Of a stretch of DNA of 64,000 nt, positions 1 through 21,704 are shown in pieces; positions within the stretch are counted from its first letter, which is position 1, and every line of letters begins with the position of its first letter. The stretch covers positions 32,001-96,000 of IMG/VR virus record IMGVR_UViG_2716884858_000003. The stretch is one strand, 5' to 3'. Position numbers and translations under genes: made by a program. This DNA comes from a virus (Duplodnaviria; Caudoviricetes). Under the pieces are notes generated by a model. The model did no database searches. It saw only the letters and a program-made list of their open reading frames with translations, and was not told the origin of the DNA.

Positions 1-1
1 C

Positions 2-610
2 AACCGCTACCTGGAGGACGCCCTGGGCCGCACCGTGGAGTTCAACGGCGGCGTGGCCACCAGGGTCTGGATGGTGGACGGCGTCCCGACCCCGGCCGCC
101 GAGCAGGCCCCCGCCGAGGAGCCCGAGGCCCCGGCCGTCGAGGAGGCCCCGGAGGCGGACGACGCCCCCGTCGAGGAGGCCCCCGAGATGGCTGCCGCCC
201 CGGCCGGGCAGGTCCAGGTGACCGCCTACACCGCCGCCCGGGAGGCCCTGCATATCAACGGCCAGGACAACGACGACCGCACCCTGACCCTGGACGCCTC
301 CGCCGTCCAGGAGACCGTGGCCGCCATGCGCCGCGTGCCCCGCTGGAACGCCGCACAGGAGCGGTTCACGGTCAACAAGGTCGCGCTGATCGTGGCCCAG
401 GACGCCCAGGGGCAGCGCGTGTGGGTGCGCGGCGAGGCCGCCCCGATCCGGGTGGACCTCGCAGGCAACCCGGTCGCCGAGGACGCCCCCGCCGAGGTCG
501 GCACCGTGGACATGGCCGCCGTCCTGGCCGCCACCCGGGTGCTGCGCCGCCGCGCGGAGGTCCGGCGGGTCATCGACAACCGCACCGCCGCCCGCGCCGC
601 CAGCGCCTGA
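2..610 (+). CDS. Hypothetical protein with acidic Pro/Ala/Glu linker; frame is open from the window edge, so probably 5'-partial
   Basis: Open frame NRYLEDALGRTVEF... from nt 2; strong GC3 codon bias. Confidence 0.7.
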   Translation, partial: NRYLEDALGRTVEFNGGVATRVWMVDGVPTPAAEQAPAEEPEAPAVEEAPEADDAPVEEAPEMAAAPAGQVQVTAYTAAREALHINGQDNDDRTLTLDASAVQETVAAMRRVPRWNAAQERFTVNKVALIVAQDAQGQRVWVRGEAAPIRVDLAGNPVAEDAPAEVGTVDMAAVLAATRVLRRRAEVRRVIDNRTAARAASA

Positions 611-700
611 CCGACCGGCCCCGCCCAGGGGGACCGGGGCGCCGGCCGTTCCGGGGCCCTCGTACGACGCACGGGTGAACCGACCATGCAACCCCACAAA

Positions 701-728
701 GCAACTTGACATTGCAATGTAGAGTTGC
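701..728 (+). promoter_or_regulatory. Palindromic operator/promoter, copy 1
   Basis: GCAACTTGACATTGCAATGTAGAGTTGC; contains TTGACA and the palindrome ACATTGCAATGT; repeated at 2407 and 3924. Confidence 0.8.
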
Positions 729-785
729 GAGAGTGTGAGTGTCAGGACGGGCGAGGGGCCCGGACGGAACCGGAGGGACAGCGCA

Positions 786-1547
786 ATGAACACCACCGCC
801 AAGGCCGCGCAGCAGATCGCCCGCCTCGTTGAGGCCGAGGACGCCCTCACCACCGCCCGCCGCGAGGAGGCCCGCACCGCCAAGACGGCGGAGCGCGCCA
901 CCGCCCGCGCCAAGGCCGCCCGCGCCAAGGTCGCCCCCGCCCGCACCGAACTGCGCAAGGCGGAGCGCGCCGGTAAGGGCGTGGCCGCCGCCACCCGCCG
1001 CCTGGCTGCCCGCATGGCCAAGGCCGCCGACCTGGCCCAGACCGCCCGGGAGGCCCGCTACGCCGCCCGCCTGGCCGCCCGCGCCGCCACCACCGCCGCC
1101 CGCCGACTGGACCGCCTGGCCCTGCGCGCCGCCACCACCGCCACCCGCATGGTGGGCGAGGTCGCCCAGCGCATGGGCGAGCGCGTGGCCACCCCCGCCG
1201 CCGAGCAGGACAAGACCCTGCCGGTGGAGGAGCTGCCCGCGGTCGCCGACATCGAGCAGCGCGCGGAGCGCTTCAAGACCCTGGACACCGAGGCCAAGGC
1301 CAAGGCCAAGCTGGCCGACGCCGAGAAGAAGTGGCTCCGCCGCCTGCCCGTGGGCACCTACGGCCGCGTGACCGTCACCCGCACCAACGGCGGCACCGTC
1401 ATCGACGCCGACCAGGTCGCCGTGGACTACCTGGACAACGGCCTGGGAGTGCCCCCGCGCAAGGGCCGCAAGGACACCTTCAAGGTCGCCCTGGAGGCCC
1501 CGGCGGTCGAGACCGCCGACCACGTGGCCCTGGTGATCGCAGCCTGA
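786..1547 (+). CDS. Hypothetical Ala/Arg-rich coiled-coil protein
   Basis: ATG at 786 after GGAGGG; GC3 bias. Confidence 0.8.
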   Translation: MNTTAKAAQQIARLVEAEDALTTARREEARTAKTAERATARAKAARAKVAPARTELRKAERAGKGVAAATRRLAARMAKAADLAQTAREARYAARLAARAATTAARRLDRLALRAATTATRMVGEVAQRMGERVATPAAEQDKTLPVEELPAVADIEQRAERFKTLDTEAKAKAKLADAEKKWLRRLPVGTYGRVTVTRTNGGTVIDADQVAVDYLDNGLGVPPRKGRKDTFKVALEAPAVETADHVALVIAA

Positions 1548-1564
1548 CCCACAACCCCCACCCC

Positions 1565-1588
1565 GCCGGGCACCGTACGGTGCCCGGC
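1565..1588 (+). terminator. Intergenic hairpin
   Basis: Perfect palindrome GCCGGGCACCGTACGGTGCCCGGC just after the stop codon. Confidence 0.6.
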
Positions 1589-1614
1589 CCCACCGAAGGA
1601 ACGGAGCACACCCC

Positions 1615-2040
1615 ATGTCGATCCTGCCCCGCTACACCCCCGAGGTTCACCTGACCGCCCTCCGCGAGGAGCTGACCGCCGCCGGCATCGAGCTGGGCCC
1701 CGTCAAGCCGGGCACCCGCGTGACCCGCGTCGTGGACCACGGCGGAATCCGCTGGGAGCTGACGTTCCTCGGAGACCGCTACGGGTGGGCCCTGCGCGGC
1801 CCCGGCATTGAGCACGGCGTGGGCATGGACGCCCCGGAGGCCGCCGAGCGCATCGCCGCCGCCGCCCTGGATGCCGAGGAGCCCGGCATCCCGGCACCGG
1901 CCACCTGGCGCGGCGTGCCCGTGCCCGAGGAGTACGCCACCCGCTGGGACAGCCCGGCCGCCGTCGCCTGGCGAGAGGGAGCAGGCGCCGCCCTGGCCGT
2001 CGCCAAGCTGACCGCCGTCGCCGCCCAGGGTGACAGCTGA
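1615..2040 (+). CDS. Hypothetical protein, 141 aa
   Basis: RBS GGAACGGAG; GC3 bias. Confidence 0.8.
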   Translation: MSILPRYTPEVHLTALREELTAAGIELGPVKPGTRVTRVVDHGGIRWELTFLGDRYGWALRGPGIEHGVGMDAPEAAERIAAAALDAEEPGIPAPATWRGVPVPEEYATRWDSPAAVAWREGAGAALAVAKLTAVAAQGDS

Positions 2041-2056
2041 CCCCCGCCCCCACCGC

Positions 2057-2081
2057 CCGGGCGCACCCGATAGGCGCCCGG
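2057..2081 (+). repeat. Conserved-loop hairpin (ACCCGAT loop), copy 1
   Basis: CCGGGCGC-ACCCGATAG-GCGCCCGG. Confidence 0.75.
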
Positions 2082-2105
2082 CCCCCCACGGAAGGAGCCA
2101 CCGCC

Positions 2106-2288
2106 ATGGCCGCACCTGCCCTGTACGGAGTCGCCGCCCGCTCCGTCGCCACCGGCGACCTGATCACCTGCGACTCCGCGTTCGACCTGGAGGACCTGCC
2201 TGCCCTGCTGGAGGGCTACCGCATCCGCTACGCGGACCGCGACGACGTGCTGATCGACCTGGACACCACCCCCCTGGCCGCCAACTGA
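2106..2288 (+). CDS. Small acidic hypothetical protein, 60 aa
   Basis: RBS AAGGAG; GC3 bias. Confidence 0.75.
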   Translation: MAAPALYGVAARSVATGDLITCDSAFDLEDLPALLEGYRIRYADRDDVLIDLDTTPLAAN

Positions 2289-2300
2289 CCCCACCCACCC

Positions 2301-2341
2301 GGGCCGGGGCGGGCGCACCCGATGGGCGCCCGCCCCGGCCC
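2301..2341 (+). repeat. Conserved-loop hairpin, copy 2
   Basis: 16-bp stem GGGCCGGGGCGGGCGC with loop ACCCGATGG. Confidence 0.75.
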
Positions 2342-2406
2342 CTGCTGCTGGAGGCCCCTGGGTGACCCGCAGGGGTGAACCTCTCGCCATGCGGCACGCA
2401 CTCCAC

Positions 2407-2440
2407 ATTGCAACTTGACATTGCAATGTCGAGTTGCAAT
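2407..2440 (+). promoter_or_regulatory. Palindromic operator/promoter, copy 2
   Basis: ATTGCAACTTGACATTGCAATGTCGAGTTGCAAT, a near-perfect 34-bp palindrome with three TTGCAA units at 13-bp spacing. Confidence 0.85.
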
Positions 2441-2496
2441 CATGGCGAACACCGGGAAGGGCGCAGGGCCCGACCGGAACCCCCCAGGAGCACCAG

Positions 2497-3012
2497 ATGG
2501 CCGCCACCACCGCCGCCCGCACCGCCACCCCGTACGCGTACCGCCAGTGCGCCGCCCGCGCCCGCGACCTAGCGGACATCCTCCGCACCCGCCTGGACGG
2601 CCACCCCCACCGCAGCGAGCTGCTGGTGTTCATCGGCCACCTGCACACCGCCGCCGAGGGGTTCGAGACCGCCGAGCCCCTGGTCATGGACGGCGTGACG
2701 ATCCCCAACGTCGCCCCCGCCGAGGGCCACCTGCCCCTGCTCATGGCCGCCGGCCACGCCGCCGACCACCCGGAGGTCGGCATCTCGGAGGCCGTGTTCG
2801 CCTACGTCACCGCCCCCGTCACCCGCCGCACCTACCGCCTGGAGCCGCTGACCGGCGGCGGCCTCGAGGACGCCGAGCTGCGCACCCGCATCGCCCTGGC
2901 GGAGCACGACCTGGCCACCGAGGGCGACCCCACCACCCGCTACGCCCTCCTGGCCACCCTCGTGCAGCTCCACGGCGACCACCTCGCCCGCGGCGGCCAG
3001 GTCGCCGCCTGA
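2497..3012 (+). CDS. Hypothetical protein
   Basis: ATG at 2497 after AGGAG; GC3 bias. Confidence 0.8.
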   Translation: MAATTAARTATPYAYRQCAARARDLADILRTRLDGHPHRSELLVFIGHLHTAAEGFETAEPLVMDGVTIPNVAPAEGHLPLLMAAGHAADHPEVGISEAVFAYVTAPVTRRTYRLEPLTGGGLEDAELRTRIALAEHDLATEGDPTTRYALLATLVQLHGDHLARGGQVAA

Positions 3013-3025
3013 CCCGCCCCCGTCA

Positions 3026-3054
3026 GGCCGGGCGCACCCGATATGCGCCCGGCC
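3026..3054 (+). repeat. Conserved-loop hairpin, copy 3
   Basis: GGCCGGGCGCA-CCCGATA-TGCGCCCGGCC. Confidence 0.75.
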
Positions 3055-3097
3055 CCCGGCCCCACTCCCCAGCGCCACCAGGAACGGAGCACCACCC

Positions 3098-3835
3098 ATG
3101 CGCTATTACGCCACCGCCCAGAACATCGGCGGCCGGGCCGTCCAGTGCGACGCCGCCGCCGTGCACACCGCCCCTGGGGGCGCACGCGCCTACGTCTTGC
3201 TTGACGGCATCGGTGACAAGCCGCACGTGCGCGACTGGACCCGCACCGCCGCCCGCCGCCTCGCCCGCAGCGCCGCCCAGCTCCTCGACGCCGCCGCCGG
3301 CCTGCGCGGGGAATACATCCGCTACGCCGCCGAGCCGGACCGCCACGGCCCCCGGGGAGCGGGCCCCATGGCGTGCGCCGTCGTGGCCGTCGAGGCCCCT
3401 GGCCGGCCGCTCACCGTCGCCTGGTGCGGCGACGTGCGCGCCTACTGGCTCGTGCGCGGCACCCTGCGCTGCCTCACCCAGGACCACAACCTGCGCCGCG
3501 TGTTCCCGCCCTGCGAGACGTACCCGGCGGGCGGCAGTCGCCACGCGGTCACCAGCTGCCTCGGCTCCGTCAATGGCGACGAGGAGCTGATGCGCGAGGT
3601 CCGGCACCCGGCCATCGAGACGGCCGCCATCGGCGCCGAGCGCGGGCGCCTGCTGCTCGCCTGCGACGGCGCATACGAGCCCCACGAGGACGCCGGACAC
3701 CAGCTCTCCGACCTGCTGTACGGCCCGCCCGCCGAGGCCGCCCGCCGCGTCGTCAACGACGCCGTGGCCACCGCCCTGACCGTCACCCACCGGCCGGACA
3801 ACGCCACCGCCCTGGTGGCCGACCTGTACGTGTAA
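3098..3835 (+). CDS. PP2C/PPM-family Ser/Thr protein phosphatase
   Basis: Motifs LLDGIG, AWCGDVRAY, LTQDHN, LLACDG and DNATA. Confidence 0.85.
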   Translation: MRYYATAQNIGGRAVQCDAAAVHTAPGGARAYVLLDGIGDKPHVRDWTRTAARRLARSAAQLLDAAAGLRGEYIRYAAEPDRHGPRGAGPMACAVVAVEAPGRPLTVAWCGDVRAYWLVRGTLRCLTQDHNLRRVFPPCETYPAGGSRHAVTSCLGSVNGDEELMREVRHPAIETAAIGAERGRLLLACDGAYEPHEDAGHQLSDLLYGPPAEAARRVVNDAVATALTVTHRPDNATALVADLYV

Positions 3836-3847
3836 CCGCAGGCCGGA

Positions 3848-3896
3848 CGATGTCCGGACGCGTCCGCCCCCTGTTCTGGGACGCGTCCGGACATCG
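3848..3896 (+). terminator. 18-bp inverted repeat
   Basis: CGATGTCCGGACGCGTCC ... GGACGCGTCCGGACATCG after the PP2C stop. Confidence 0.65.
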
Positions 3897-3923
3897 GCCC
3901 GGGGTGGCGCGCCCGACACCCAT

Positions 3924-3960
3924 ATTGCAACTTGACATTGCAATATGGAGTTGCCAATAT
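3924..3960 (+). promoter_or_regulatory. Palindromic operator/promoter, copy 3
   Basis: ATTGCAACTTGACATTGCAATATGGAGTTGCCAATAT; TTGACA-17 bp-CAATAT. Confidence 0.8.
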
Positions 3961-4009
3961 GGATCACGTGAGGGAGGGCAAACGGCCCGACCGGAACGGA
4001 GCGAACGCC

Positions 4010-4186
4010 ATGAATACCTACACCGTCGGCCAGCGCGTACGGATCACCGTCGACCTGGACCCCGAGAAGTACCCGATCGGCACCGAGACCACCGTCACCG
4101 GCCACTGTGACCTGAGCGGCTTCCCGTGCATCACCCTCGGCGGCCAGACCGTGACCATGATCCCCGGCCACCTCCTCCCCGCCTGA
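4010..4186 (+). CDS. Small beta-rich (SH3/KOW-like) protein, 58 aa
   Basis: MNTYTVGQRVRITV...; RBS GGAACGGAG. Confidence 0.7.
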   Translation: MNTYTVGQRVRITVDLDPEKYPIGTETTVTGHCDLSGFPCITLGGQTVTMIPGHLLPA

Positions 4187-4198
4187 CCCAACGCCAGG

Positions 4199-4233
4199 CG
4201 CCGGGGGCCGCACCCGATATGCGGCCCCCGGCG
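4199..4233 (+). repeat. Conserved-loop hairpin, copy 4
   Basis: CGCCGGGGGCCGCA-CCCGATA-TGCGGCCCCCGGCG. Confidence 0.75.
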
Positions 4234-4283
4234 TTCACCCACCGAGACCGGCCACCAGCCACAGGCCCCCGAAAGGAACCCCG

Positions 4284-4535
4284 ATGCGCCTGCGCTACTC
4301 GATCCCACTGCCCGGCCCGTTCTCCGTCGGCGGAGGCGTCAACCTCGGCGGCGGGGGTAAGGCGCTCGGCTACCTGTTCGTGCTCCCGATCATGCTCCTG
4401 CCCTACCTGCTGCTGGGCGAGGCGTGGCTGATGTGGTGGTGCCTCAAGCCCTGGTACATCGCCGGCGTGCTCGTACACCGCAAGGTCACCGGCCGGCCCA
4501 CGCCCATCTGGCGCTCCCGCAACGGCTGGTGGTAA
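4284..4535 (+). CDS. Small membrane protein, 83 aa
   Basis: Hydrophobic segment LGYLFVLPIMLLPYLLLG; RBS AAAGGA. Confidence 0.75.
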   Translation: MRLRYSIPLPGPFSVGGGVNLGGGGKALGYLFVLPIMLLPYLLLGEAWLMWWCLKPWYIAGVLVHRKVTGRPTPIWRSRNGWW

Positions 4536-4544
4536 CCCGCCCCC

Positions 4545-4676
4545 GGACACCGGCCGGACAACCCCGGCCGGACACGCCGGACACGACCTGACCAGCACCG
4601 ACGACCCACCAACGGACACGGGGCGGACACGCCCGCCCCACGTCCCGGACACCCGCCCCGGACACGTCTGGGACAC
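4545..4676 (+). repeat. GGACAC direct-repeat cluster
   Basis: Eight GGACAC plus one GGACAA in about 130 bp of intergenic DNA, all on the same strand. Confidence 0.75.
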
Positions 4677-4794
4677 CGCCCGCCCAGGCCGCCCCCTCCG
4701 GCCCGGGCGGGCCCTCGTCGTCCCCAGGAGCCACCTCGCCGCCCGGCGTACCCTGCTCCGCTGCCCAAGCAGCCCCCGAGCAGGGACAACGCCC

Positions 4795-5649
4795 ATGAGC
4801 CAGGCCACCTACGACCGCACCGCCGACGTGCCCCTCGGCGACCTCCGCCCGTTCCCGGGCAACGCCCGCCGCGGCGACCCGGCCGTCATCCTGCAAAGCC
4901 TGGTCCGCACCGGGCAGTTCCGCAGCCTCATCGTGCGCGACACCGGCGACAGCCTGGTGGTCCTCGCCGGTAACCACACCCTCCAGGCCCTGCTGGCCCA
5001 CGGCCCCGGCCCTTGCGGCATGACCACGACCGTGGACGGTGCGGAGCTGCCCTGCGCCCTGTGCGGCGGCCAGGAGTGGGCGCCCGCCGCGCGCTGCGAG
5101 ATCGTCACCTGTGACGACGCGACGGCGACCCGCATCAACCTCGTGGACAACCGGTCGGCGGAGCTGGGCGGGTGGGATGAGCAGGCGCTGGCGGAGCTGA
5201 TCGCCGGACTGGACGGCGACCTGGACGGCACCGGCTACACGGACGCCGACCTGGCCGACCTGGTGGCCGCCATCGAGGAGGCGTACGAGGAGGAGCCCGA
5301 GGAGGAGCAGCCGGCCCCGGCCGGGAACGCCGCACCGGCGGAGCCGGCCACCTCGAGCGCCGCCCCGGCCAGCGGCGACACCATCCCCGAGGGCCCGGCC
5401 CCCGGCACCGTCGCCCCGCCCATGCCGGACGGCACCCGCTCCATGCTGCTCACGTACCCGGCCGCCGACCGCGACGAGGCGGCCCGCCTGGTCGTCGCCG
5501 CCCGCGAGGTGTTCCCGGCCGAGGACGCCGCCGTCATCGTGCTGCGCGCCCTGCGCACCCTCGTGGCCGTCCTGGACTCCCGCCACGCCCACGACGGCGT
5601 GGTCACCGTGGCGGCCCTGCTGCGCGCCGCAGGGGCCCCAGAGTCATGA
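4795..5649 (+). CDS. ParB/Srx N-terminal-domain protein, paralog 1
   Basis: PFPGNARRGD, VVLAGNHT, DNRSAELG; Cys-rich insert. Confidence 0.85.
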   Translation: MSQATYDRTADVPLGDLRPFPGNARRGDPAVILQSLVRTGQFRSLIVRDTGDSLVVLAGNHTLQALLAHGPGPCGMTTTVDGAELPCALCGGQEWAPAARCEIVTCDDATATRINLVDNRSAELGGWDEQALAELIAGLDGDLDGTGYTDADLADLVAAIEEAYEEEPEEEQPAPAGNAAPAEPATSSAAPASGDTIPEGPAPGTVAPPMPDGTRSMLLTYPAADRDEAARLVVAAREVFPAEDAAVIVLRALRTLVAVLDSRHAHDGVVTVAALLRAAGAPES

Positions 5650-5828
5650 GCACGGCCGTCGACCTGGCCCCGCCTCGTCGGCGCCGCTCGCGCCGCCCTG
5701 AGCGCCTGCTGACCCAGAACAGCGAACTCCGGGACGAGGGCATTTGGAACTGGACGCTCCCGGCGCTGGCCACCCGGCTGCGAGACGGACGCACCGTCAA
5801 GACCTGTCCGGCTGCTGGGGTCTGCGTG
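5646..5828 (+). pseudogene. Truncated Gp88-like (phage CxxxxxC) gene
   Basis: LLTQNSELR..GIWNWTLPA...TCPAAGVC resembles the Gp88-family N-terminus; codon bias collapses immediately after, at the defence-island edge. Confidence 0.6.
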
Positions 5829-6090
5829 TCGCGTATCGCTGCAGATGCCGTGTCCCCCGCATGTGTGTCGCTTTACGCGGGACCGGAGCCCCGATGCGCC
5901 AACTCGCCATGGAGGATCAAGGTGTCTCATTCCTTCTCTGGCCTGTGGTCGAGATCACACTGCGCGGCGACAGGGCCCAGCTGCTCGATGTCCACTGGCT
6001 GATTCGGTGGTCCACCACGCTGACAGGCTTCGAAAAATACGGCAGCAGGTGCACTCGGCGTGGAGCGGCCGCCGAATGTCGAGTGCCCGG

Positions 6091-8061
6091 CTACTCGTCC
6101 TCGTCGTCGATCGGTTCAGTGATCCACTCCGGAGGTACGAGGGCCTGGCTGTTGCTGTAGCGCCAGCGCTCGACGACGTGGTCACGGAAGAGCGGATCGG
6201 CCAGGTCGGCGTGCTCGACGACGATGACCTGGAGCGCGCCGTCGAGCGCCTGGACGGTGTCATTGATGGTCCGGTAGATATCCAGCAGGTGGCTGAGGTC
6301 AGTCCCCTGGGGTGTGGGCTCGCCGGTGTAGTCGGGCGGGAAGTACACCTGGGACGGCTGGTCGAGGATCAGCGTCCGCGGGACGGGTCCGCGGTGCTCG
6401 CTGAACCACTCGTGCAGGCTCAGCAGCGTGGCGACGTGGTAGCCCAGGTGGTTCTCGGCGCTGCCCATGTCGGCGAGTCGGACGGGACCGTCGGCCGTGT
6501 CGGCGACGACAGTCAGCCGGTTGACGTCGAGGCGGATGGGCGCGTCCGAGTGGTCGAGCTCCAGCGCGGCAGCCTTGGTGCGGATGTTCTGGCTGATCAG
6601 GGACAGGTAACTGGTGAGCCGGTCGCCCTGGGTGTCGTCGCTCAGGAGCTCTTCCAGCTCAGCGATCTGTTGCTGGAGGGCGTCGCGGCGGTCTTCGACC
6701 TGCGGGGCACTCACATGCTGGGCAGTGGTGTCGAGGTAAAGGCTGATACGGCCGCGCACATGGGCGGCCCGCTGCGCCTGGTCCGGCTCCTGCTGCAGCG
6801 CGCGCAGCCCGGCGCTGATCTCGTTGATTTCGTCCTGGCTGCGGGAGAGCGCCGCGCGCAGTTGCTGTAGCTGCTCCTCCTCCAGGGCCATCTGGCGTTG
6901 CAGGGCGGGTGTGTCGCTGCCGATCACCTGTAGATCGCCGTCGAGGCGTTCGAGGTCGTGCATGATCGTCGCCACCGTGGTGTTGGCCGAGGCGATCGGG
7001 CTTTCGCACACCGGGCACTGCGCGGCCTGGGAGGTGTCTGGGGACAGTCGCATCAACCCGAGAGACGCGAGACGCCGGCGCTGCTCTCTTGCCTCGCCCG
7101 CGAAGTCGTCATTCTCCTCGACCGCGCGCTTGAGGTCGGCGATGCGGGCCCGGGACTGCCCGACGGCGCGCCGCAGTTGGGCACGCCGGCCGATGGCGGC
7201 GGTCAACGGGTCGCCGTCGTTGTCCGGTCGGGACTCCAGCTCTAGCCGGATGCTGCCTTCCAGGGCGAACCGCAGAAGGCCAAGGATCTCCTCCGCCGTC
7301 GGCTCGCTGTCGCGGTGCGGTACAAGCCCTGCCTCGACCGCCTCGGTGAGCAGTGCTCGGGCCTGGCCCGACGCTGGGCCGAGGTCGCGGGCCTGGGCGA
7401 GTTTGGCTTCAAGGTCGGAAAGGTCCCGGCGCAGGAGCCGCAGCCGGTTGCGCAGCGCTGCCTGTTCGGGGTCGACGGCGCCGAGGAAGTACGGAATCAC
7501 ACCCCGGATGGTGTTCGGTCGCCACTCCTCACCTTGGGAGTGGAACAGCAGGTCGGGGTTGGCGACCTCGTTCTGTGCCTGGAAGCAGAAGTACAGCGCG
7601 TGGCGGATCGACGGAGCGATGGTCTGGGCGCGGGCGACCGCGGGCACCTTGATGGTGCGGTCGATGCCGCAGAAGTCGCTGAGGATGTCCTTGGCGGTGT
7701 CCAGGGGCGTCGCGAAGGTCAGCTCCTCCAGCGGGGGAGGCGGGGTCTCTGGGGCCTGGGACAGGACACACAGCACGGTGCTCACGGCGTTCCCCGGCTC
7801 CGGGGCGCGCCGGGCGACGAAGAGCTGCTGGTCGGGCTTCGCCAGGGTGACGGCGTAGGCGCCCACGTACTTGCGGACCTTGCCGGCCTTGACGGGGTAG
7901 TCGGAGCTAGCCAGGCAGTAGTCGATGATGGTCAGCAGCGCGCTCTTCCCGCGCCGGGAGTCGCCCGTGACGATGTTCAGGGTGCCGGTGTGGAACGGGA
8001 CCGTGCGGACCTGTCCGGGCTGCTTGCCGTAGACGGTGACCGCTTGGATCTGAAAGGTCAC
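6091..8061 (-). CDS. lmuB: Lamassu LmuB / ABC-3C SMC-like ATPase (DUF3732 type)
   Basis: Walker A GDSRRGKS, coiled coil with CPVC hook, MGSAENHLGYH, Walker B LILDQPSQVYFP, VVEH; GTG at 8061 overlaps the upstream stop. Confidence 0.85.
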   Translation of the reverse strand: MTFQIQAVTVYGKQPGQVRTVPFHTGTLNIVTGDSRRGKSALLTIIDYCLASSDYPVKAGKVRKYVGAYAVTLAKPDQQLFVARRAPEPGNAVSTVLCVLSQAPETPPPPLEELTFATPLDTAKDILSDFCGIDRTIKVPAVARAQTIAPSIRHALYFCFQAQNEVANPDLLFHSQGEEWRPNTIRGVIPYFLGAVDPEQAALRNRLRLLRRDLSDLEAKLAQARDLGPASGQARALLTEAVEAGLVPHRDSEPTAEEILGLLRFALEGSIRLELESRPDNDGDPLTAAIGRRAQLRRAVGQSRARIADLKRAVEENDDFAGEAREQRRRLASLGLMRLSPDTSQAAQCPVCESPIASANTTVATIMHDLERLDGDLQVIGSDTPALQRQMALEEEQLQQLRAALSRSQDEINEISAGLRALQQEPDQAQRAAHVRGRISLYLDTTAQHVSAPQVEDRRDALQQQIAELEELLSDDTQGDRLTSYLSLISQNIRTKAAALELDHSDAPIRLDVNRLTVVADTADGPVRLADMGSAENHLGYHVATLLSLHEWFSEHRGPVPRTLILDQPSQVYFPPDYTGEPTPQGTDLSHLLDIYRTINDTVQALDGALQVIVVEHADLADPLFRDHVVERWRYSNSQALVPPEWITEPIDDEDE

Positions 8062-8540
8062 GCTTGGACTCCCAGGAGCGTCAGGACGGTGCTGATGCTG
8101 CCGGTGCTGGGCAGCCAGCGCCCGAGTTGGTGGGCGGCTTTCTGGATCGCGGTGTTCTGTTCGGGGCCGTCCTTGAGGGCCGTCACGGCCCGTGGCTTCA
8201 CCGTCAGCCCGGAGCCTTGAAGCCTGAGCACATCGCTCTGAAGGGCGAAGAGCAGGCCTGGTCGCACGACGGTGGCGAGGGCGGCGGCGTTGAGACCCAT
8301 GGCCACGCGGACGGCCTCGTTCTCGTCGAGCCAGTTCATCAGCCCGGTGCGGAGGGTGGCGGGCAGCGCCGTCCGGATAGACGGCTGGAGAGCCATAACC
8401 GCGGCGGTCACTGCGACTGGAAGCGGGCAGGCGGAGCGGTACTGCTTCTCGTAGCCCTGCACAGCCCGGACGCACACGAGTGCTGTGAAGGCCGGGTTGA
8501 ACAGTGCGCGCTCCTCGCGGCTGAGGTCACGCTCGGCCAT
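8058..8540 (-). CDS. lmuC: ABC-3C middle component (LmuC-like)
   Basis: 160 aa, LFNPAF motif, lies between effector and ATPase with overlapping start/stop codons. Confidence 0.75.
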   Translation of the reverse strand: MAERDLSREERALFNPAFTALVCVRAVQGYEKQYRSACPLPVAVTAAVMALQPSIRTALPATLRTGLMNWLDENEAVRVAMGLNAAALATVVRPGLLFALQSDVLRLQGSGLTVKPRAVTALKDGPEQNTAIQKAAHQLGRWLPSTGSISTVLTLLGVQA

Positions 8541-9753
8541 CAGCGGCTCCCGCCGGCTCCAGCAGAGCCGCCAGCCGGGCGCTGAAGTCCGGATGCCACC
8601 CGACCTGCAGCTCGTCCGCGAGCATTTGGTACGACCCCTTGACGACGAACACCTCTTCACAGCCTGTGCGGATGCGAAGCCGGGCCTCCCGGTCGACCCA
8701 CCTGTAGATCAGCTTGGCCTCACGCTTCATCTCTTCTTCGGTGGCTTCATCGCCGAGATCTTCACGCATCTCGGCGAAGCGCGACTGCCACTCCTCCACG
8801 AGCCTGCGCTCATACGCGCCGATCTCGCCGGCACGTAGCAGGTTCTCGTTCGCCCAGCGGGAGCGCTGAGCGAAGGCCCTCACCCAGTCCCGAACCGCGT
8901 AGCCGATCCGCTCCGCGCCCACGTCGATCAGCCGGAGCTGATGCACGAACACCTTGTCGGCGGCATCGGCAGCGGCCGGGGCCGCAGCCGTGAGCGCGGC
9001 GATATCAGGGTCGATCGGCAGATTGTGCTCACCGATCTGATTGCGCAGATCGTTGAACAGCTCGTCGAACTCGGAGCCGGTCACCGGATCCGACCCCGGG
9101 AAGCTCATCTGGACGGACGCCCGCTCGAAGAACCAGCCCTCAAGACGCTGAAGAAAGGACTCGGCGTACCGGCGCTCGACGGCCAGGCTTGCGTAACCGA
9201 GCAGGTCCTCCCTGATGGAGTTCATCCCCGGCGCGTCACCGATGACCTCGACCCGGCTGATGAGCTCGGCCCGGCGCTGCGCCCCGAGCGCGTCGAACGC
9301 CTCGAAGGCCTTGGCCAACGTCGTACTCTTCGAGGACTGCCGTGCCTGGACGAGGAGAGCCTCGGCAGCCTGCTCGTCACGGTGCCCGCTGGCCTTGGGC
9401 TGCAGGAGGAACCCCGCGCTGTCGTCCGGCAGCTCTGCGGTGGTAATCAGGTAGAGGCTTGTCTCGGCAAGGTCGATGTGCCCCTCGGTAACGGCGTGTG
9501 ACCAGACCCTGATTGTCTTCCACAGGTCCGACGACAGGTCCGTCAGTCTCACGTTGTCTGCCCGCTTCTTCAGCTGGGTCAGCTCGGTGTGCGACCCGAT
9601 GAGGGCCTGGACATCGTCCGTTGCCTCAATCGCCACACTCCACTCGATCCCGCCCCTGGAGAGCTCCACGCACCGCTGGAGCGCCACGCGGAGTTGGTAG
9701 AGGTATCCGAGCGCTGACGCCGATGCTTCGAAGGGATTCTCCGGGCTGGTCAT
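8527..9753 (-). CDS. lmuA: ABC-3C effector (LmuA-like): Cap4/PD-(D/E)xK-type nuclease N-terminus plus C-terminal domain
   Basis: ASALGYLYQ, IEATDDV, QLK, DLWKTI; C-terminus GSYQMLADE..VGWHPDF. Confidence 0.8.
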   Translation of the reverse strand: MTSPENPFEASASALGYLYQLRVALQRCVELSRGGIEWSVAIEATDDVQALIGSHTELTQLKKRADNVRLTDLSSDLWKTIRVWSHAVTEGHIDLAETSLYLITTAELPDDSAGFLLQPKASGHRDEQAAEALLVQARQSSKSTTLAKAFEAFDALGAQRRAELISRVEVIGDAPGMNSIREDLLGYASLAVERRYAESFLQRLEGWFFERASVQMSFPGSDPVTGSEFDELFNDLRNQIGEHNLPIDPDIAALTAAAPAAADAADKVFVHQLRLIDVGAERIGYAVRDWVRAFAQRSRWANENLLRAGEIGAYERRLVEEWQSRFAEMREDLGDEATEEEMKREAKLIYRWVDREARLRIRTGCEEVFVVKGSYQMLADELQVGWHPDFSARLAALLEPAGAADGRA

Positions 9754-11283: not shown

Positions 11284-11999
11284 CCACCGCCACCTACCTG
11301 CGCACCGACACCATCCCGGTGGACCAGCTCACCCCGTACCCGGGCAACGCCAAGCGCGGCGACGTCCCCGCCATCCTGCGCAGCCTGCGCAAGAACGGGC
11401 AGTACCGCGGCCTGGTGGTCCGTCAGCAGCCGGACGGCACCCTGGTGGTGCTCGCCGGCAACCACACCCGCATGGCGCTCGCCGAGCACGGCCCCGGCGA
11501 CTGCGGCGTCAAGGAGTGCGGCATCTGCCGCAACAGCCCGGCCTGGACTCCGGCAGCCCGCTGCGAGGTGGTCGAGTGCGACGACGCCACCGCGCTGCGG
11601 GTCAACCTGGCGGACAACCGCACGGCCGAGCTGGGCCACACCGACTACGCGGCCCTGGCCGACCTGCTCGGCACCCTGGACGACTTCGACGGCACCGGCT
11701 ACAACGACCAGGACGTCGCCGACATCACCCAGCTGATCGCGCTCCCACAGGACGACGTCAAGGGCGACCCCCGCCCGCCGTCCGGATCCACGGCGCCCGG
11801 GGACGGCCCCGGCCCGGGCAGCCACGATGACGAGGCGAGCCCAGAGGCGTTCCTGCCCGTCATCACCCTGCGCGTCAGTCACGCCACATTCGACCGCTGG
11901 CGCGACGCCCTGGACGCCCACCCGGGAGAGGACGACGCCGCCAAGCTGCTCGGCCTGCTCGCTGAGCTGGAGGCCTACCGCGCCCGGGCGGCCGCATGA
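11280..11999 (+). CDS. ParB/Srx N-terminal-domain protein, paralog 3
   Basis: PYPGNAKRGD, VVLAGNHT, DNRTAELG; ATGA overlap. Confidence 0.85.
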   Translation: MTTATYLRTDTIPVDQLTPYPGNAKRGDVPAILRSLRKNGQYRGLVVRQQPDGTLVVLAGNHTRMALAEHGPGDCGVKECGICRNSPAWTPAARCEVVECDDATALRVNLADNRTAELGHTDYAALADLLGTLDDFDGTGYNDQDVADITQLIALPQDDVKGDPRPPSGSTAPGDGPGPGSHDDEASPEAFLPVITLRVSHATFDRWRDALDAHPGEDDAAKLLGLLAELEAYRARAAA

Positions 12000-12928: not shown

Positions 12929-13434
12929 GCGGCACCCCAACCCCGCAGCCCTGCGAGATCCCCCACGCGACCAGGCAGGAAGAGGAGGAATGCGAGCGGC
13001 GCCGCCTCGCCGCACCGGACACCACCACCCTCATCCGCACCGTCACGGTCGGCCCCATCGCGATCTTCTTCACCAACGTCAACCGGGCCATGGGCCTGCG
13101 CGCCCACTCCCACACCGGTGCCGTCACCGTCGTCTACGACACCATCGGCCGCCACGGCTACCCCTCCTTCGCGGAGACGAACGCCGCCCTGGAGCGCCGC
13201 ATCCACGAGCTGACCCGGGCCGTGTTCAAGGACGCCACCAACGAGGACATCGCCGACCGCCTGTTCGCCCACCTCGACGGCTACACGGCGCCGGAGTGGG
13301 AGAGCTGGGGCGGGGCCTACGACCTGCGCGGCGTCCACCTTGACGTCATCGGCGTCCGGGACGCCATCGGCCACGACACCGGCACCACCCGCTACACCGT
13401 CGCCCGCACCCACCCCCAGGAGCACCAGTCATGA
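12925..13434 (+). CDS. Divergent QueD-like T-fold protein (candidate DpdL-like)
   Basis: HxH motif (RAHSH) and ATNEDIA, similar to the QueD HGH and PTxE motifs; translationally coupled between dpdA and queD. Confidence 0.55.
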   Translation: MSGTPTPQPCEIPHATRQEEEECERRRLAAPDTTTLIRTVTVGPIAIFFTNVNRAMGLRAHSHTGAVTVVYDTIGRHGYPSFAETNAALERRIHELTRAVFKDATNEDIADRLFAHLDGYTAPEWESWGGAYDLRGVHLDVIGVRDAIGHDTGTTRYTVARTHPQEHQS

Positions 13435-13883
13435 GCCACCACGTCACGGTCCGGCACAACTTCGAGACCGCCCACCGCGTGCCGCACCTGCCCGGCAAGT
13501 GCACCAACCTGCACGGCCACTCCTGGTGGGCAGAGATCACCGTCACCGCACCAGAGCTGTCCCGCGGCGGCATGGTCGTGGAGTTCGGCGCCTTCAAGAA
13601 GCTGCTGCGCCGGTGGATCGATGACTACCTGGACCACGGCGCCATGCTCGGCGCCCAGGACGCCCTGCTGCCCATCCTGCGCGCCCACGGCTCCAAGGTG
13701 TACGAGGTGACCGGCTGGCCCACCGTGGAGGCCACGGCCGAGCTGCTCGCCCACGTCGCCGGCGACATCCTCACGGACCTGGTGCGCGCGGAGGGCGCCT
13801 ACGTCTCCCGAGTCCACGTCACCGAGACCCACGTCAACGGCGCCACCTGGACCGCGCCCGCCCCGGCCGGGGCGACCGCATGA
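13431..13883 (+). CDS. queD: 6-carboxy-5,6,7,8-tetrahydropterin synthase
   Basis: FETAHR, KCTNLHGHSW, LDH, PTVE. Confidence 0.92.
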   Translation: MSHHVTVRHNFETAHRVPHLPGKCTNLHGHSWWAEITVTAPELSRGGMVVEFGAFKKLLRRWIDDYLDHGAMLGAQDALLPILRAHGSKVYEVTGWPTVEATAELLAHVAGDILTDLVRAEGAYVSRVHVTETHVNGATWTAPAPAGATA

Positions 13884-14611
13884 CCCCCGACACCGTCACC
13901 GTCGACACCACCGACACCCTCGTCATCCGAGAAGTGTTCGGCTGCACCGTGCAAGGAGAGGGACCCTCCTGCGGGCGGCGCTGCTCGTTCATCCGCCTGG
14001 GCGGCTGCAACCTGACCTGTGGCTGGTGCGACACCCCGGAGACCTGGGACGCGGGCCGATTCGACCTGCGCCAGACCCTCACCCGCACCCCCGTCGCCGA
14101 GATCGTCACCCGCGCCCTGGAGGGCGACCCCGGCATGGTCGTCATCACCGGCGGGGAACCCCTGCTCCACCAGCGCAAGGACGGCTGGCGCTCCCTCCTC
14201 GGCGCGCTCATCCTCGCCGGCACGGAGATCGAGGTGGAGACCAACGGCACCCAGGAGCCCGAGGAGCACACCGCCCGCTGGGTGACCCGCTTCAACGTCT
14301 CGCCCAAGCTCGCCCACGCCGGCGACCCCGCGGACAAGCGCATCCGCCCCGGCGCCCTGTACGCCCTGCACGACACCCACAAAGCCGTCTTCAAGTTCGT
14401 CTGCTGCAACACCGCCGACGTCCATGAGGTACAGGCGTTCACCGCCGCCCACGGCATCCCGCCCGGCCTGGTGTGGGTGATGCCCGAGGGCACCGACACC
14501 GCCACCATCTCCACCCGCCTGGGGGAGATCGCCGACCCGGCCATCGCCGCCGGATTCAACCTGAGCACCCGCCTGCATGTACATGCCTGGGGCGACGAGA
14601 AAGGCCGATAG
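13880..14611 (+). CDS. queE: 7-carboxy-7-deazaguanine synthase (radical SAM)
   Basis: QGEG, FIRLGGCNLTCGWCDT, ITGGEPLL, VETNGT, VSPK, RLH. Confidence 0.93.
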   Translation: MTPDTVTVDTTDTLVIREVFGCTVQGEGPSCGRRCSFIRLGGCNLTCGWCDTPETWDAGRFDLRQTLTRTPVAEIVTRALEGDPGMVVITGGEPLLHQRKDGWRSLLGALILAGTEIEVETNGTQEPEEHTARWVTRFNVSPKLAHAGDPADKRIRPGALYALHDTHKAVFKFVCCNTADVHEVQAFTAAHGIPPGLVWVMPEGTDTATISTRLGEIADPAIAAGFNLSTRLHVHAWGDEKGR

Positions 14612-14615
14612 ACCC

Positions 14616-15287
14616 ATGACCACCACCGAGCCCAAGGGCCTGCGGATCGCCCCCGGCGCCCTCACCCCCAAGCCCTCCCGCTCCATCACCGTCCCGGCCC
14701 CCGCCTACCCGGGCGACCCGCTGCCCGGCGCCGTGGCGCTCCAGGCCGGCGTACGGGCCTGGCTGGAGGCCCGCGGCCTGGACGCGGACGCCCCGGACCT
14801 GGTGGACACCCCCGCCCGCGTGCTCCGGGCCCTCAACGAGATGACCGCCGGCTACGACGAGGACCCCGCCCAGCACCTCGCCCGGACGTTCCCGGCCCAG
14901 CACGCCGGGACGCCGATCGTCGTCACCGGCGTGCCGTTCACGTCGCTCTGCGCCCACCACCTGCTCCCGTTCACCGGGCACGCCGATATCGCCTACCAGC
15001 CCCGCTTGGGCGACCCCGTGGCCGGACTGTCCAAGCTCCCCCGCGTCCTGGACGTGTACGCCCGCCGCCTCCAGACCCAGGAAGACCTCACCCGCCAGGT
15101 GACCGCCGCCCTGGACGAGCACCTGGCTCCCCTCGGCGCCGCGTGCGTCATCCGCTCCGAACACGGCTGCCTCGCCCACCGAGGGGCCCGCAAGCCCGGC
15201 GCCGTCATGGTCACCGCCTCCTACACCGGGTGCTTCGACGCCGACGTGTACCGGCGGGAGGAGCTGCACCGCCTCATGTCCGGCTGA
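14616..15287 (+). CDS. folE: GTP cyclohydrolase I
   Basis: DTPARV, SLCAHHLLPF, GLSKLPR, ARRLQTQE, HGCLAHRG. Confidence 0.93.
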   Translation: MTTTEPKGLRIAPGALTPKPSRSITVPAPAYPGDPLPGAVALQAGVRAWLEARGLDADAPDLVDTPARVLRALNEMTAGYDEDPAQHLARTFPAQHAGTPIVVTGVPFTSLCAHHLLPFTGHADIAYQPRLGDPVAGLSKLPRVLDVYARRLQTQEDLTRQVTAALDEHLAPLGAACVIRSEHGCLAHRGARKPGAVMVTASYTGCFDADVYRREELHRLMSG

Positions 15288-15334
15288 CCCCCCGATATGC
15301 GAACCAATAGGCACATGCGAACGGAGGGCACCCG

Positions 15335-15784
15335 ATGAGCGCCAGCAGGGCCAAGCGCGCCCAGGTCGCGGAGCGCCGCGCCAAGGCCATCGCCATGGTG
15401 CTGGCCGGAGTCGATTACGAGACGATCGCCGACCGGCTCGGCTACGCGAGCAGAGGCGCCGCGCACACCGACGTGGACCGCGCCCTGGCCGCGAACCTCA
15501 CCGACCTGGAGACCTCGGCGGGCAGCCTGCGGGAGGTCCAGTTCATGCGCTACCAGCGGCTGCTGGCCGCCGTGTGGCCCAAGGCCCTCAAGGGCGACCT
15601 GAAAGCGGTGGAGGGAGCGGCGCGGCTGGTCGACCGCATCGTGAAGCTTTGGGGCCTGGCCGAGCCGGAGCGGCTGGACCTCAACGTGGACGCCCAGAGC
15701 CTGGGGGACGAGATCCTGGCGCTCCTGCGCGAGCAGACCAGCGACGGCGACGAGGGCGACGAGGATGCGTCTGACCTGCCGTAA
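15335..15784 (+). CDS. Probable terminase small subunit (HTH)
   Basis: AGVDYETIADRLGY HTH; directly upstream of terL. Confidence 0.7.
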   Translation: MSASRAKRAQVAERRAKAIAMVLAGVDYETIADRLGYASRGAAHTDVDRALAANLTDLETSAGSLREVQFMRYQRLLAAVWPKALKGDLKAVEGAARLVDRIVKLWGLAEPERLDLNVDAQSLGDEILALLREQTSDGDEGDEDASDLP

Positions 15785-15915
15785 CGACCCTGTACCAGGG
15801 CACCGTTGGCGTGATCTTGGAGGCCGCTGCGCCCCTACCATTTCAGGCGAAAGCCCCGTAGCGGCGGCCACCGCCACGGGGCACTGCCAGACCTGAAGAC
15901 ACGTGAGGTCCGACG

Positions 15916-20159: not shown

Positions 20160-20189
20160 GAATCCCTCCCAGGCAACGACGTGACATGC

Positions 20190-20385: not shown

Positions 20386-20431
20386 TTCCTGGTCCGAAAA
20401 TAACGTCTGAGCCTCCGCTGGGCAGGCGGTG

Positions 20432-21676: not shown

Positions 21677-21704
21677 GAGAGCCCTCCCCGTCTACGGCCG
21701 ACAG

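Follow-up and report, generated by a model that had tools for sequence, protein, structure and literature searches.

The boxB hairpins of lambdoid nut sites are bound by the N protein, and recognition goes through the loop rather than the stem; lambda has two nut sites, each of them promoter-proximal and paired with a boxA, and the boxB loop is a GNRA-like pentaloop. The RNase III sites of phage T7 lie in the leader, between early cistrons and at the operon end, where the polycistronic RNA is cut into stable hairpin-ended units; RNase III reads double-stranded stems and internal loops over about two helical turns and not the terminal loop. Integron cassettes are single small co-oriented genes, each followed by an imperfect palindrome (attC). 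In high-GC actinobacteria, as in their phages, many genes are followed by hairpins without a U tract, and it is disputed if these end transcripts at all and in what way; Ingham and colleagues are said to have reported, in 1995, terminators lacking a U tract in the early region of the actinophage phiC31. Finally, the PeSL (promoter-early stem-loop) regulatory cassettes are elements of T4-type phages (Arbiol et al. 2010, PMC2839356; Comeau et al. 2014, PMC4122927), for which mini-circles have been reported (PMC2839356).

The locus described here resembles the PeSL cassettes, as far as these accounts present them. In both, a plastic early region holds small genes without known function, bordered by strong early promoters of sigma-70-like type that recur and by stable stem-loops in the intergenic space; the stem-loops are placed after a stop codon and ahead of the following ribosome-binding site, and insertions, deletions and replacements between related phages end in the repeats (here a 3.2-kb difference at a promoter repeat, and the junctions at hairpin H4, the fifth copy and the leftmost copy). 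It differs in that promoter and hairpin are mostly separate and many hairpins lie inside operons, whereas the PeSL is a composite motif, and in that the loop is invariant, whereas the portions of the PeSL description that deal with the stems give G and C tracts and no fixed loop (PMC2839356). The phage also differs, being temperate with a high-GC actinomycete host and not T4-type; a scan of 98 ORFs gave no T4-type identity.

The window, that is, the whole stretch of 64,000 nucleotides that was analysed, is contained in a virus record of 114,478 bases (G000), whose relatives are one Streptomyces prophage and one Streptomyces phage. The source is a Streptomyces-type temperate phage. The loop studied here is carried by this record and by two syntenic relatives, G001 and G002, the three showing 66-96% nucleotide identity in segments aligned by BLAST; the G002 copies sit in a prophage of a Streptomyces genome. 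The more distant relatives considered were G003, G004 and phage TurkishDelight. The punctuated early genes are ORFs with high third-position GC and occupy positions 786 to 4535 of the window on the + strand:

786-1547, + strand: 253-aa gene (ORF)
1615-2040, + strand: 141-aa gene (ORF)
2106-2288, + strand: 60-aa gene (ORF)
2497-3012, + strand: 171-aa gene (ORF)
3098-3835, + strand: 245-aa PP2C-like phosphatase gene (ORF and Pfam PP2C)
4010-4186, + strand: 58-aa gene (ORF)
4284-4535, + strand: 83-aa gene (ORF)

The PP2C match at 3098-3835 was the only one that Pfam gave for these genes, and a PHROGs search of the same set returned no named function. A search with the 171-aa protein alone found no further relatives; with an alignment of five sequences of this protein, only G001 and G003 were found.

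Four hairpins punctuate this array, all at the places after stop codons where the earlier note had put them, except that the fourth stem starts at 4197 and not at 4199:

2057-2081, + strand: hairpin H1, 8-bp stem (2057-2064 / 2074-2081), loop 2065-2073; read from the sequence
2301-2341, + strand: hairpin H2, 16-bp stem (2301-2316 / 2326-2341), loop 2317-2325; from sequence, fold and covariance model
3026-3054, + strand: hairpin H3, 11-bp stem (3026-3036 / 3044-3054), loop 3037-3043; from sequence, fold and covariance model
4197-4235, + strand: hairpin H4, 16-bp stem including 2 G-T pairs (4197-4212 / 4220-4235), loop 4213-4219; from sequence and fold

They begin 10-16 nt after TGA stops (2038-2040, 2286-2288, 3010-3012 and 4184-4186), and the predicted RNA folds of all four present the loop. 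H1 starts 16 nt past the stop of the 141-aa gene and ends 25 nt ahead of the next ATG; its stem arms are CCGGGCGC and GCGCCCGG, and its 9-nt loop, ACCCGATAG, is a CCCGATA core closed by an A.G mismatch. Its predicted fold (-17.3 kcal/mol, z -1.1) is the only one of the four that is not better than shuffles; it scores 47.0 bits with the covariance model and has orthologues in G001 and G002, and in two isolate read sets its 5' arm is longer by 5 extra bases. H2 starts 12 nt past the stop of the 60-aa gene, has a predicted fold of -46.3 kcal/mol (z -5.6) and carries the loop ACCCGATGG, the only copy with the core CCCGATG; its orthologue has CCCGATA in G001 and has lost the 3' arm in G002. H3, between the 171-aa gene and the phosphatase gene, has the stem GGCCGGGCGCA / TGCGCCCGGCC, the 7-nt loop CCCGATA and a predicted fold of -27.2 kcal/mol (z -4.1), and its stem-loop is identical in G001 and G002. 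H4 has the same CCCGATA loop on a stem, GGCGCCGGGGGCCGCA, of a different sequence type from H1-H3, with a predicted fold of -36.6 kcal/mol (z -5.6).

The family, first described as having four members, has four in the window, where the covariance model with filters off found no further copies, and is larger in the whole record, which has seven post-stop copies and one copy in a 5' leader, just downstream of a promoter. G001 has seven post-stop copies, and G002 has six and one leader copy. In all three genomes every copy lies on the coding strand, with a stop 6-16 nt upstream and the following start 22-50 nt downstream. A chance origin of the recurrence is excluded: GCACCCGATRKGC occurs exactly four times against 0.03 expected (none of 100 shuffles reaches 4), and ACCCGAT occurs 14 times against 6.56 expected (none of 100 shuffles reaches 14), the remaining 10 of these 14 matches forming no hairpin. 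The TGACC context of the stop codons was considered as part of the element and rejected because it is common genome-wide (27 of 81 ORFs). As a separate observation, a remnant-like CCCGATATGCG without a stem lies after the GTP cyclohydrolase gene (window 15291-15301).

The second repeated component consists of early promoters, of which window positions 700-4235 hold four copies beside the four hairpins (there are six promoter copies in G001 and five in G002), and of a leader motif:

701-734, + strand: early promoter repeat P1, GCAACTTGACATTGCAA, 17-nt spacer, GAGAGT, with palindromic TTGCAA boxes
2405-2443, + strand: early promoter repeat P2, TTGACA, 17 nt, AATCAT, with three TTGCAA boxes; 10 of 12 consensus positions
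3920-3960, + strand: early promoter repeat P3, TTGACA, 17 nt, CAATAT
1598-1607, 3081-3090 and 3993-4002, + strand: shared leader or ribosome-binding motif GGAACGGAGC, exact repeats

The same 17-mer of P1 is present in the relatives. The 3.2-kb difference in gene content from G001 and G002 ends at P2, and the BLAST segments overlap on its repeat; in the three-genome alignment P3 and its leader are conserved while the gene behind them is replaced. That several downstream genes share a leader was borne out, with three exact copies of GGAACGGAGC against 0.26 expected (1 of 100 shuffles reaches 3). We regard it as a shared ribosome-binding leader because each copy lies 8-10 nt before an ATG.

The explanation that we propose, and to which we give about an even chance, joins three parts. 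The hairpins would be transcribed intercistronic RNA stem-loops of early operons whose promoters bear the TTGCAA boxes, sited in the 5' leader, between cistrons and at the operon end, and they would punctuate the mRNA, either by setting and shielding the ends of transcripts, as barriers or as processing sites, or by attenuating read-through. The CCCGAUA loop may be the docking site for a sequence-specific trans-acting factor peculiar to this lineage, which could be a protein of antitermination, termination or RNA processing, or else a partner RNA. The conserved elements, each about 40 bases long, and the repeated promoters may incidentally act as homology patches for the exchange, gain and loss of single genes among related phages, probably via the phage's own RecT/YqaJ recombination system (the domain scan found both YqaJ and RecT encoded by the phage). 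The likeness to boxB is that of a short, phage-specific hairpin in early transcripts whose loop is the putative recognition element, with one copy just downstream of a promoter. As in nut/boxB-type sites, a conserved loop sits on a variable stem in predicted early transcripts. The differences are that there are here 7-8 copies, mostly after stop codons, that the loop has 7 nt, and that no boxA-like partner or N-like protein was identified; the leader position is taken by one of the eight copies of the record, and the flanks show no common motif beyond C-rich sequence. With the RNase III sites of T7 the hairpins share their places in the leader, between early cistrons and at the end of an early operon; unlike those sites, H1 has a stem of only 8 bp and the conserved part is the terminal loop.

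The sequence and the folds place a GC-rich hairpin directly downstream of the gene, as for a terminator. However, no T run follows any of the stems, C-rich sequence being found instead, and no terminator-like site (0) was detected in window positions 1-6000. Among the post-stop copies only H2 precedes a promoter, P2, instead of a gene; what comes next after the others, at a distance of 22-50 nt, is a gene that has a ribosome-binding site and no recognisable promoter. In the experiments described for purified mycobacterial RNA polymerase, there was no termination at hairpins without a U tract (PMC3993855). The hairpins are not classical intrinsic terminators. They share with the U-less actinobacterial "terminators", such as those reported for phiC31, the GC-rich stem right after a stop, the missing T run and the setting in the early region of a Streptomyces phage; that class needs no loop sequence, whereas the conserved loop found here would offer a handle for a factor-dependent mechanism.

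The strongest competitor of the proposed punctuation by a recognized loop, although we consider it rather unlikely, is that these are ordinary terminator or stabiliser hairpins that lack a U tract and are not recognized through the loop, a single module having spread by duplication and repeat recombination in the manner of PeSL cassettes, so that the shared loop would be the inherited baggage of a young lineage. The comparison of loop and stem bears on this directly. The loop had been described as an invariant ACCCGAT; it is indeed retained, but the common core is the heptaloop CCCGAT(A/G), and because two copies in the record are closed by a G-C pair and not by A-T, the invariant part is reduced to these seven positions. 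When orthologous copies are compared (G000 against G001 and G002), differences affect 1 of 119 loop positions, 33 of 408 stem positions and 265 of 612 flank positions. Conservation of the loop exceeds that of the stems (Fisher p = 0.0024) and, by a wide margin, that of the flanks, which argues against inherited baggage, though these counts are not independent, since the loop is known in only three genomes, all of them related, a restriction that in itself suits the ordinary-hairpin explanation.

The stems were said to differ while staying paired. Of the stem cells, 84.6% are paired as against 68.8% in shuffles, 10 of 14 stem pairs show changes on both sides, and none of 500 shuffles reaches the observed values; in an alignment of 15 copies the outer stems are variable and the centre is invariant, and the leftmost copy shows one orthologous C-G to T-A double change. 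The pairing and the covariation thus stand, as does the distinct stem of H4, but the variability is not general, since H1, H2 and H3 share the stem core CGGGCGC. These three, which with the extra G002 copy have a common stem core, may be recent duplicates, as simple duplication of one module would have it. Against duplication, the stems that bear the identical loop belong to at least four types with no alignment to each other, among them those of the G-C-closed and the leader copies, so that gene conversion cannot easily account for its identity; conversion tracts of 7 bases between unlike stems are implausible. Individual copies are dispensable: the 3' arm of H2 is missing from G002, and the stability of H1 in G000 hardly exceeds that of shuffled sequence. 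In our explanation, the heptaloop CCCGAUA is held by purifying selection.

Other hairpins in the same genomes served as controls:

1565-1588, + strand: control hairpin after the 253-aa gene, GCCGGGCACC gtac GGTGCCCGGC; same position class, other loop
3842-3899, + strand: long control hairpin between the phosphatase gene and P3; G000, G001 and G002 have different loops

The first of these has the loop ccta in G001. At all three orthologous places with control hairpins (after the 78-aa, 253-aa and phosphatase genes) the loops change among G000-G002, which an ordinary hairpin carrying inherited baggage does not readily explain for the fixed CCCGATA loop beside them. In the distant relatives G003, G004 and TurkishDelight, hairpins occupy matching places with other loops, and gene families that carry CCCGATA hairpins in G000-G002 have other loops (gtac, cacc and one longer) in G003 and G004. 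The expectation that the loop would be conserved in homologous loci therefore holds for the close relatives G001 and G002 and fails in these three distant ones: loop identity tracks the genome and not the gene. That the distant relatives function with other loops weighs against the proposed docking site. The phage group at large has intergenic hairpins with the stem GGCCGGGCGC(C) and the loops acca, cacc, acccc, ccacc, gacc, ccgtc and gtac, and such assorted loops at matching intergenic places are what hairpins without loop recognition would show. Wherever TurkishDelight and G004 repeat a loop, exactly or nearly so, the stem is identical as well, for which reason we consider these copies duplicates; this, too, suits the ordinary-hairpin explanation, as does the fact that promoter repeats demonstrably bound the 3.2-kb gene-content difference.

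The searches confine the element to one phage lineage. A covariance-model search of 151 Streptomyces genomes gave true matches only in the G002 prophage; in three other Streptomyces matches CACCCG forms part of the stem. The many chromosomal copies expected of a host REP-like repeat were not found in these 151 genomes, and the element is not a host feature. Rfam 15 gave no match at the gathering score, its three matches (E-values 0.15-1.6) being all far below it and one of them overlapping a hairpin (H2, window 2307-2335, minus strand). No match better than an E-value of 0.09 came from a BLAST search of cultured phages and plasmids with H3 and its flanks. In the viral collection the H1-H3 pattern returned 22 loci, of which two, both in G001, were related, and the H4 pattern returned 10 loci, one of them related. 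A longer pattern run against metagenome contigs gave 10 loci, none related; these were other hairpins rich in GC, and in several of them the stem reaches into the motif.

The proposal that the loop is recognized by a protein, on RNA or on single-stranded DNA, gained from the loop, which is conserved above all other parts of the element, recurs on at least four types of stem and sits beside controls that change; it did not gain a candidate factor. The proteins restricted to the three loop-bearing genomes, according to a presence table and PHROGs, are an integrase, an excisionase, a RuvC-like resolvase and two small unknowns, and no RNA-binding or NusG-like domain was found among the 98 ORFs scanned. 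As a partner RNA, we considered a 10-base exact complement of the loop and its closing bases at genome positions 31419-31428, upstream of the first early promoter. It is conserved in G002, and we treat it as coincidence because the T-to-C change that G001 shows there is not mirrored in its loops. Judged by eye, the loop matches neither a tRNA anticodon loop, which would need a U at its second position, nor a T loop, which would need a U-A pair of positions 1 and 5, nor the reported preference of mycobacterial RNase E.

The conserved loop agrees with a site that is recognized by its sequence on a folded strand, and orientation and position together would favour RNA. We consider it improbable that the signal is instead read in single-stranded DNA, either as a hairpin extruded from the non-template strand or from a replication or recombination intermediate and bound by a DNA-binding protein in the manner of ops, or as the nick site of an HUH-type nuclease. 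The strand-specific orientation and the fixed single-stranded heptamer atop a stem would suit such a signal, although orientation cannot tell DNA from RNA because nearly all genes of the phage are on one strand. Nor do the non-Watson-Crick stem positions, counted by hand as two T-G versus two A-C, speak for the RNA sense, which counts against our own explanation. A promoter lies immediately upstream of one copy, a location at which recruitment elements occur, and CCCGATA resembles CTTGATA, the nick sequence of rolling-circle replicons of the pC194 type. However, no HUH, Rep, relaxase or NusG-like domain appeared in the 98 ORFs, eight dispersed copies are unexpected for an origin, and a literature search on the nick motif gave nothing for Streptomyces.

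Gene content does shift at the hairpins, in partial agreement with the earlier note. In the three-genome alignment about 40 bases at H4 are identical, with non-homologous genes on both sides, and in isolate contigs the similarity spans 4179-4232 and then ends. G002 has one extra unit of gene plus hairpin and lacks another. Mosaic junctions are flush with H4, the fifth copy and the leftmost copy. The one resolvable junction, however, that of the extra G002 cassette, lies in the C-rich spacer past the hairpin and not in the loop, and the largest difference (3.2 kb) ends in promoter repeats. The array resembles integron cassettes in its single small co-oriented genes, each with a palindrome after it, and in a content that varies by single units; it differs in that no integron integrase or attI was found, that the conserved part is the loop and not the stem-base cores, that promoters and ribosome-binding sites lie within the array, and that the junction is outside the site. 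That a recombinase reads the folded or duplex hairpins as integron-like or lox-like sites and shuttles single genes, which would agree with inverted arms round an invariant asymmetric centre of 7-9 bases, all in direct orientation, and with the units gained, lost or replaced at G002 and on both sides of H4, is most improbable: the sole tyrosine recombinase in the 98 ORFs is the 602-aa phage integrase at the far left end (genome 1-1809), beside the excisionase and about 32 kb from the window hairpins; known recombinase sites have conserved arms and a variable centre, the opposite of these hairpins; conserved core sites at the stem bases were not seen in the 15-copy alignment, nor were the chimeric hairpins with unpaired arms expected from crossover in the loop between stem types; and the strong promoters inside the array, the junction in the spacer and the promoter-bounded difference count against it as well. 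The earlier note's integron-like array is not supported, no cassette integrase having been found in the 98 ORFs, and we prefer the proposed punctuation of the early mRNA with exchange as a by-product.

The locus offers a compact testable case: eight hairpins with differing stems carry one heptaloop that shows clear selection, next to controls with free loops and relatives with other loops, and this combination points to a specific partner that would be recoverable with the RNA. Going further, we tentatively raise a possibility to which we give less than an even chance, namely that the CCCGAUA hairpins serve an actinophage as cis sites of an RNA-recognition system that is lineage-specific and has not been described before. 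In it, a phage-made factor would dock at every early gene border and decide between stopping and read-through by RNA polymerase, or the place of cleavage, at hairpins without a U tract. If true, this would be a multi-site counterpart of N/boxB and a concrete case of factor-dependent 3'-end formation at the disputed U-less hairpins of actinobacteria. A possible use is as insulated expression parts for Streptomyces, with promoter and hairpin as a pair. For the phages themselves, the finding is that a temperate actinophage has its single early genes exchanged at borders marked by repeated promoters and hairpins, which extends the PeSL picture beyond T4-type phages.

Four hairpins with the loop core CCCGATA or CCCGATG are located in the window, each with a TGA stop 10-16 nt upstream:

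H1: window 2057-2081, plus strand, post-stop hairpin
H2: window 2301-2341, plus strand, post-stop hairpin
H3: window 3026-3054, plus strand, post-stop hairpin
H4: window 4197-4235, plus strand, post-stop hairpin

The motif GCACCCGATRKGC is present in 4 copies where 0.03 are expected, a count reached by 0/100 shuffles, and lies within the loop in 4/4 of the predicted folds; H1 (-17.3 kcal/mol, z -1.1) is alone among the four in folding no better than shuffled sequence. The earlier note had described hairpins after stop codons with differing stems. The hairpins stand, as all four were located and are non-random, but H1, H2 and H3 have the stem core CGGGCGC in common, with a different stem in H4, so the stems are less varied than that note believed. 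The shared leader GGAACGGAGC that it reported is real (3 copies vs 0.26 expected) and is a ribosome-binding leader, 8-10 nt ahead of ATG codons.

The window hairpins are located within a run of short operons, whose strong promoter is present in four copies (genome 31468, 32706, 34415 and 35932) and is composed of GCAACTTGACATTGCAA and, 3' of it, a -10 box, accompanied by palindromic TTGCAA boxes. Each short intergenic region reads stop codon, GC-rich hairpin, C-rich spacer, ribosome-binding site and next start; no T run was found 3' of any hairpin, and a promoter follows the hairpin at H2 only. Outside the window, the same record carries 3 further post-stop hairpins (loop starts at genome 14916, 16645 and 17190) and a shorter, imperfect 5'-leader copy at genome 13768-13774, directly 3' of another such promoter. 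Every copy lies on the coding strand, and a covariance model built from 15 copies found no additional copy in the window with filters off. Two of the extra-window copies have a G-C closing pair in place of A-T, which reduces the invariant core to CCCGAT(A/G). The promoter repeats, 4-5 in all (window 700-745, 2405-2445 and 3920-3960; outside it, genome 31468 and 13711), are laid out as TTGACA, a 17-nt spacer and a -10 box amid the TTGCAA boxes, candidate operators for a single repressor, and the promoter 17-mer is retained in five related phages or prophages.

The window belongs to a single virus record of 114,478 bases and 70.8% G+C which, judged by Pfam and PHROGs scans of 98 ORFs, is a temperate tailed phage. 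The left end of the record encodes a tyrosine integrase together with an excisionase, and the scans also recognized a YqaJ exonuclease and RecT, WhiB, a ParB-like protein (window 4795-5649), 7-deazaguanine synthesis genes, a terminase-sized ORF with a LAGLIDADG insertion, and a Mu F-like head protein, an amidase and a holin. The host is probably Streptomyces. Relatives were sought with the promoter 17-mer, a query independent of the hairpins, which gave three high-GC viral contigs (G001, 61 kb; G003, 95.6 kb; G004, 55 kb) out of 21 loci, and 6 Streptomyces genome records out of 58 loci. Among named genomes, the closest syntenic relative is a prophage in Streptomyces sp. NPDC096040, and Streptomyces phage TurkishDelight was the only cultured relative found. 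The closer relatives G001 and G002 share synteny with the record (66-96% identity over aligned segments), and additional relatives are present in two isolate read sets, X3 and X9.

Both G001 and G002 carry CCCGATA hairpins in orthologous positions, 7 in the former and 6 plus one leader copy in the latter, where the 3' arm of H2 is lost and one additional copy is present. The more distant G003 and G004, together with TurkishDelight, share this architecture; the stem is often GGCCGGGCGC(C), and the loops are acca, cacc, acccc, ccacc, gacc, ccgtc and gtac; no CCCGATA hairpin was found in these three. Among 151 Streptomyces genomes searched with the covariance model, true matches occurred in the G002 prophage only, so the motif is not a host feature, and nothing was found in Rfam or in the cultured-phage and plasmid collections. 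In the alignment of 15 copies, pairing holds for 84.6% of stem cells vs 68.8% in shuffles and 10/14 stem pairs are changed on both sides, values reached by 0/500 shuffles. Ungapped comparison of orthologues gave 1/119 differences in the loop (0.8%), 33/408 in the stems (8.1%) and 265/612 in the flanks (43.3%, raised by insertions and deletions), with p = 0.0024 for loop vs stems in Fisher's test, the counts not being independent because the genomes are related. Three other hairpins at orthologous positions in the same genomes differ in their loops in all 3 cases. The loop follows the genome and not the gene: the 171-aa and 131-aa genes have a CCCGATA hairpin 3' in this lineage, and one with the loop gtac, cacc or longer in G003 and G004. 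The feature is real, non-random and under selection; of the invariant ACCCGAT loop first proposed, conservation holds and the leading A does not.

The earlier note proposed to check whether gene content shifts precisely at the hairpins; shifts do occur there, flush with some copies. At H4, the record, G001 and G002 are identical in the upstream promoter and leader and in the 33-base hairpin core, while the gene between them is swapped (58 aa in the record, an unrelated 62-aa protein in both relatives) and the sequence 3' is also unrelated; H4 is an island of identity between differing sequences. In X3 and X9 contigs similarity extends over 4179-4232, ending at the H4 3' foot, a replacement in G001 abuts the fifth hairpin copy, and the leftmost gene and hairpin are replaced in G002. 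Against this, an additional gene-plus-hairpin unit 3' of H4 in G002 has its junction in the C-rich spacer, outside the loop, and two additional operons (3.2 kb), which lie between H2 and the 171-aa gene in G001 and G002 and are absent from the record, end in promoter copies, since the aligned segments overlap at the promoter repeat (genome 34409-34445).

Several other features of the record were observed. A 10-base stretch at genome 31419-31428 (581-572 bases ahead of the window start), in a divergent control region upstream of the first early promoter, is exactly reverse-complementary to the hairpin loop with its closing bases; it is retained in G002 and has one change in G001, whose loops have no matching change. 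CGGACAC is repeated 7 times within 122 bases (window 4544-4665) just 5' of the ParB-like gene and may be a centromere-like or iteron array; relatives have similar GTCCGGAC-rich palindromes. A DUF3732 protein (794 aa) adjoining a 408-aa protein with Cap4-like nuclease and ABC-3C CTD7 domains (window 6091-9753, minus) is likely a prophage-borne defence system. Clustered genes for a 6-pyruvoyl-tetrahydropterin synthase family (QueD-like) protein, a radical-SAM protein and GTP cyclohydrolase I (window 13431-15287) suggest 7-deazaguanine synthesis; CCCCGATATGCG, directly 3' of the GTP cyclohydrolase I stop (15288-15301) and without a stem, may be a decayed hairpin copy. Behind this cluster, an 883-aa LAGLIDADG ORF (15916-18567) can be aligned with relatives over only about half of its length, a pattern that an intein or homing-endonuclease insertion would produce. 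A row of three transposase genes of the IS110 family (459, 414 and 414 aa) occupies 18915-23239 (minus), followed by two divergent giant ORFs that are unusual phage cargo, one of 2059 aa with a C-terminal Laminin_G_3 domain (23995-30174, minus) and one of 2245 aa with an RHS repeat and a weak match to Fic/DOC (30513-37250, plus), in a region of lower G+C (62-69%) with strong GC skew, opposite on either side. Left of the window (L001, genome coordinates), the gene between two left-hand hairpins (15704-16615) fuses a LuxR/GerE-type HTH to an HNH-endonuclease-like region (PHROG 826), and a small protein (11670-11969) with a sub-threshold Acb2/Tad1 hairpin domain match (25.6 bits vs a cut-off of 27) may be an anti-defence sponge.

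From their position, strand, covariation and lack of a T run, the hairpins would be transcribed and would punctuate a polycistronic early RNA; copies occupy leader, intercistronic and operon-end positions. In two published studies, purified mycobacterial RNA polymerase is not stopped by hairpins without a U tract (PMC3993855), and in Streptomyces stable 3'-region stem-loops build up as decay intermediates (PMC4681348). On these accounts the putative function we favour is that of elements that define ends or protect the RNA, or of factor-dependent attenuators, rather than that of intrinsic terminators. That the loop is conserved on stems that differ points to a specific partner; none was found among proteins limited to the three loop-bearing genomes, in PHROGs or in the domain scan of 98 ORFs. 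That the hairpins are instead a DNA-level single-strand signal is improbable, and the 98 ORFs scanned yielded no supporting protein. The integron-like array of the earlier note failed its defining tests: among the 98 ORFs scanned the only tyrosine recombinase is the phage integrase, and the 15 aligned copies have a fixed centre and variable outer stems. In coinciding with mosaic junctions, the hairpins resemble the PeSL (promoter-early stem-loop) cassettes of T4-type phages (PMC2839356, PMC4122927), and the coincidence fits homology-driven exchange in a phage that has RecT and YqaJ. Intercistronic phage hairpins and repeated regulatory cassettes are kinds of element already known; what is unusual here is the invariant heptaloop.
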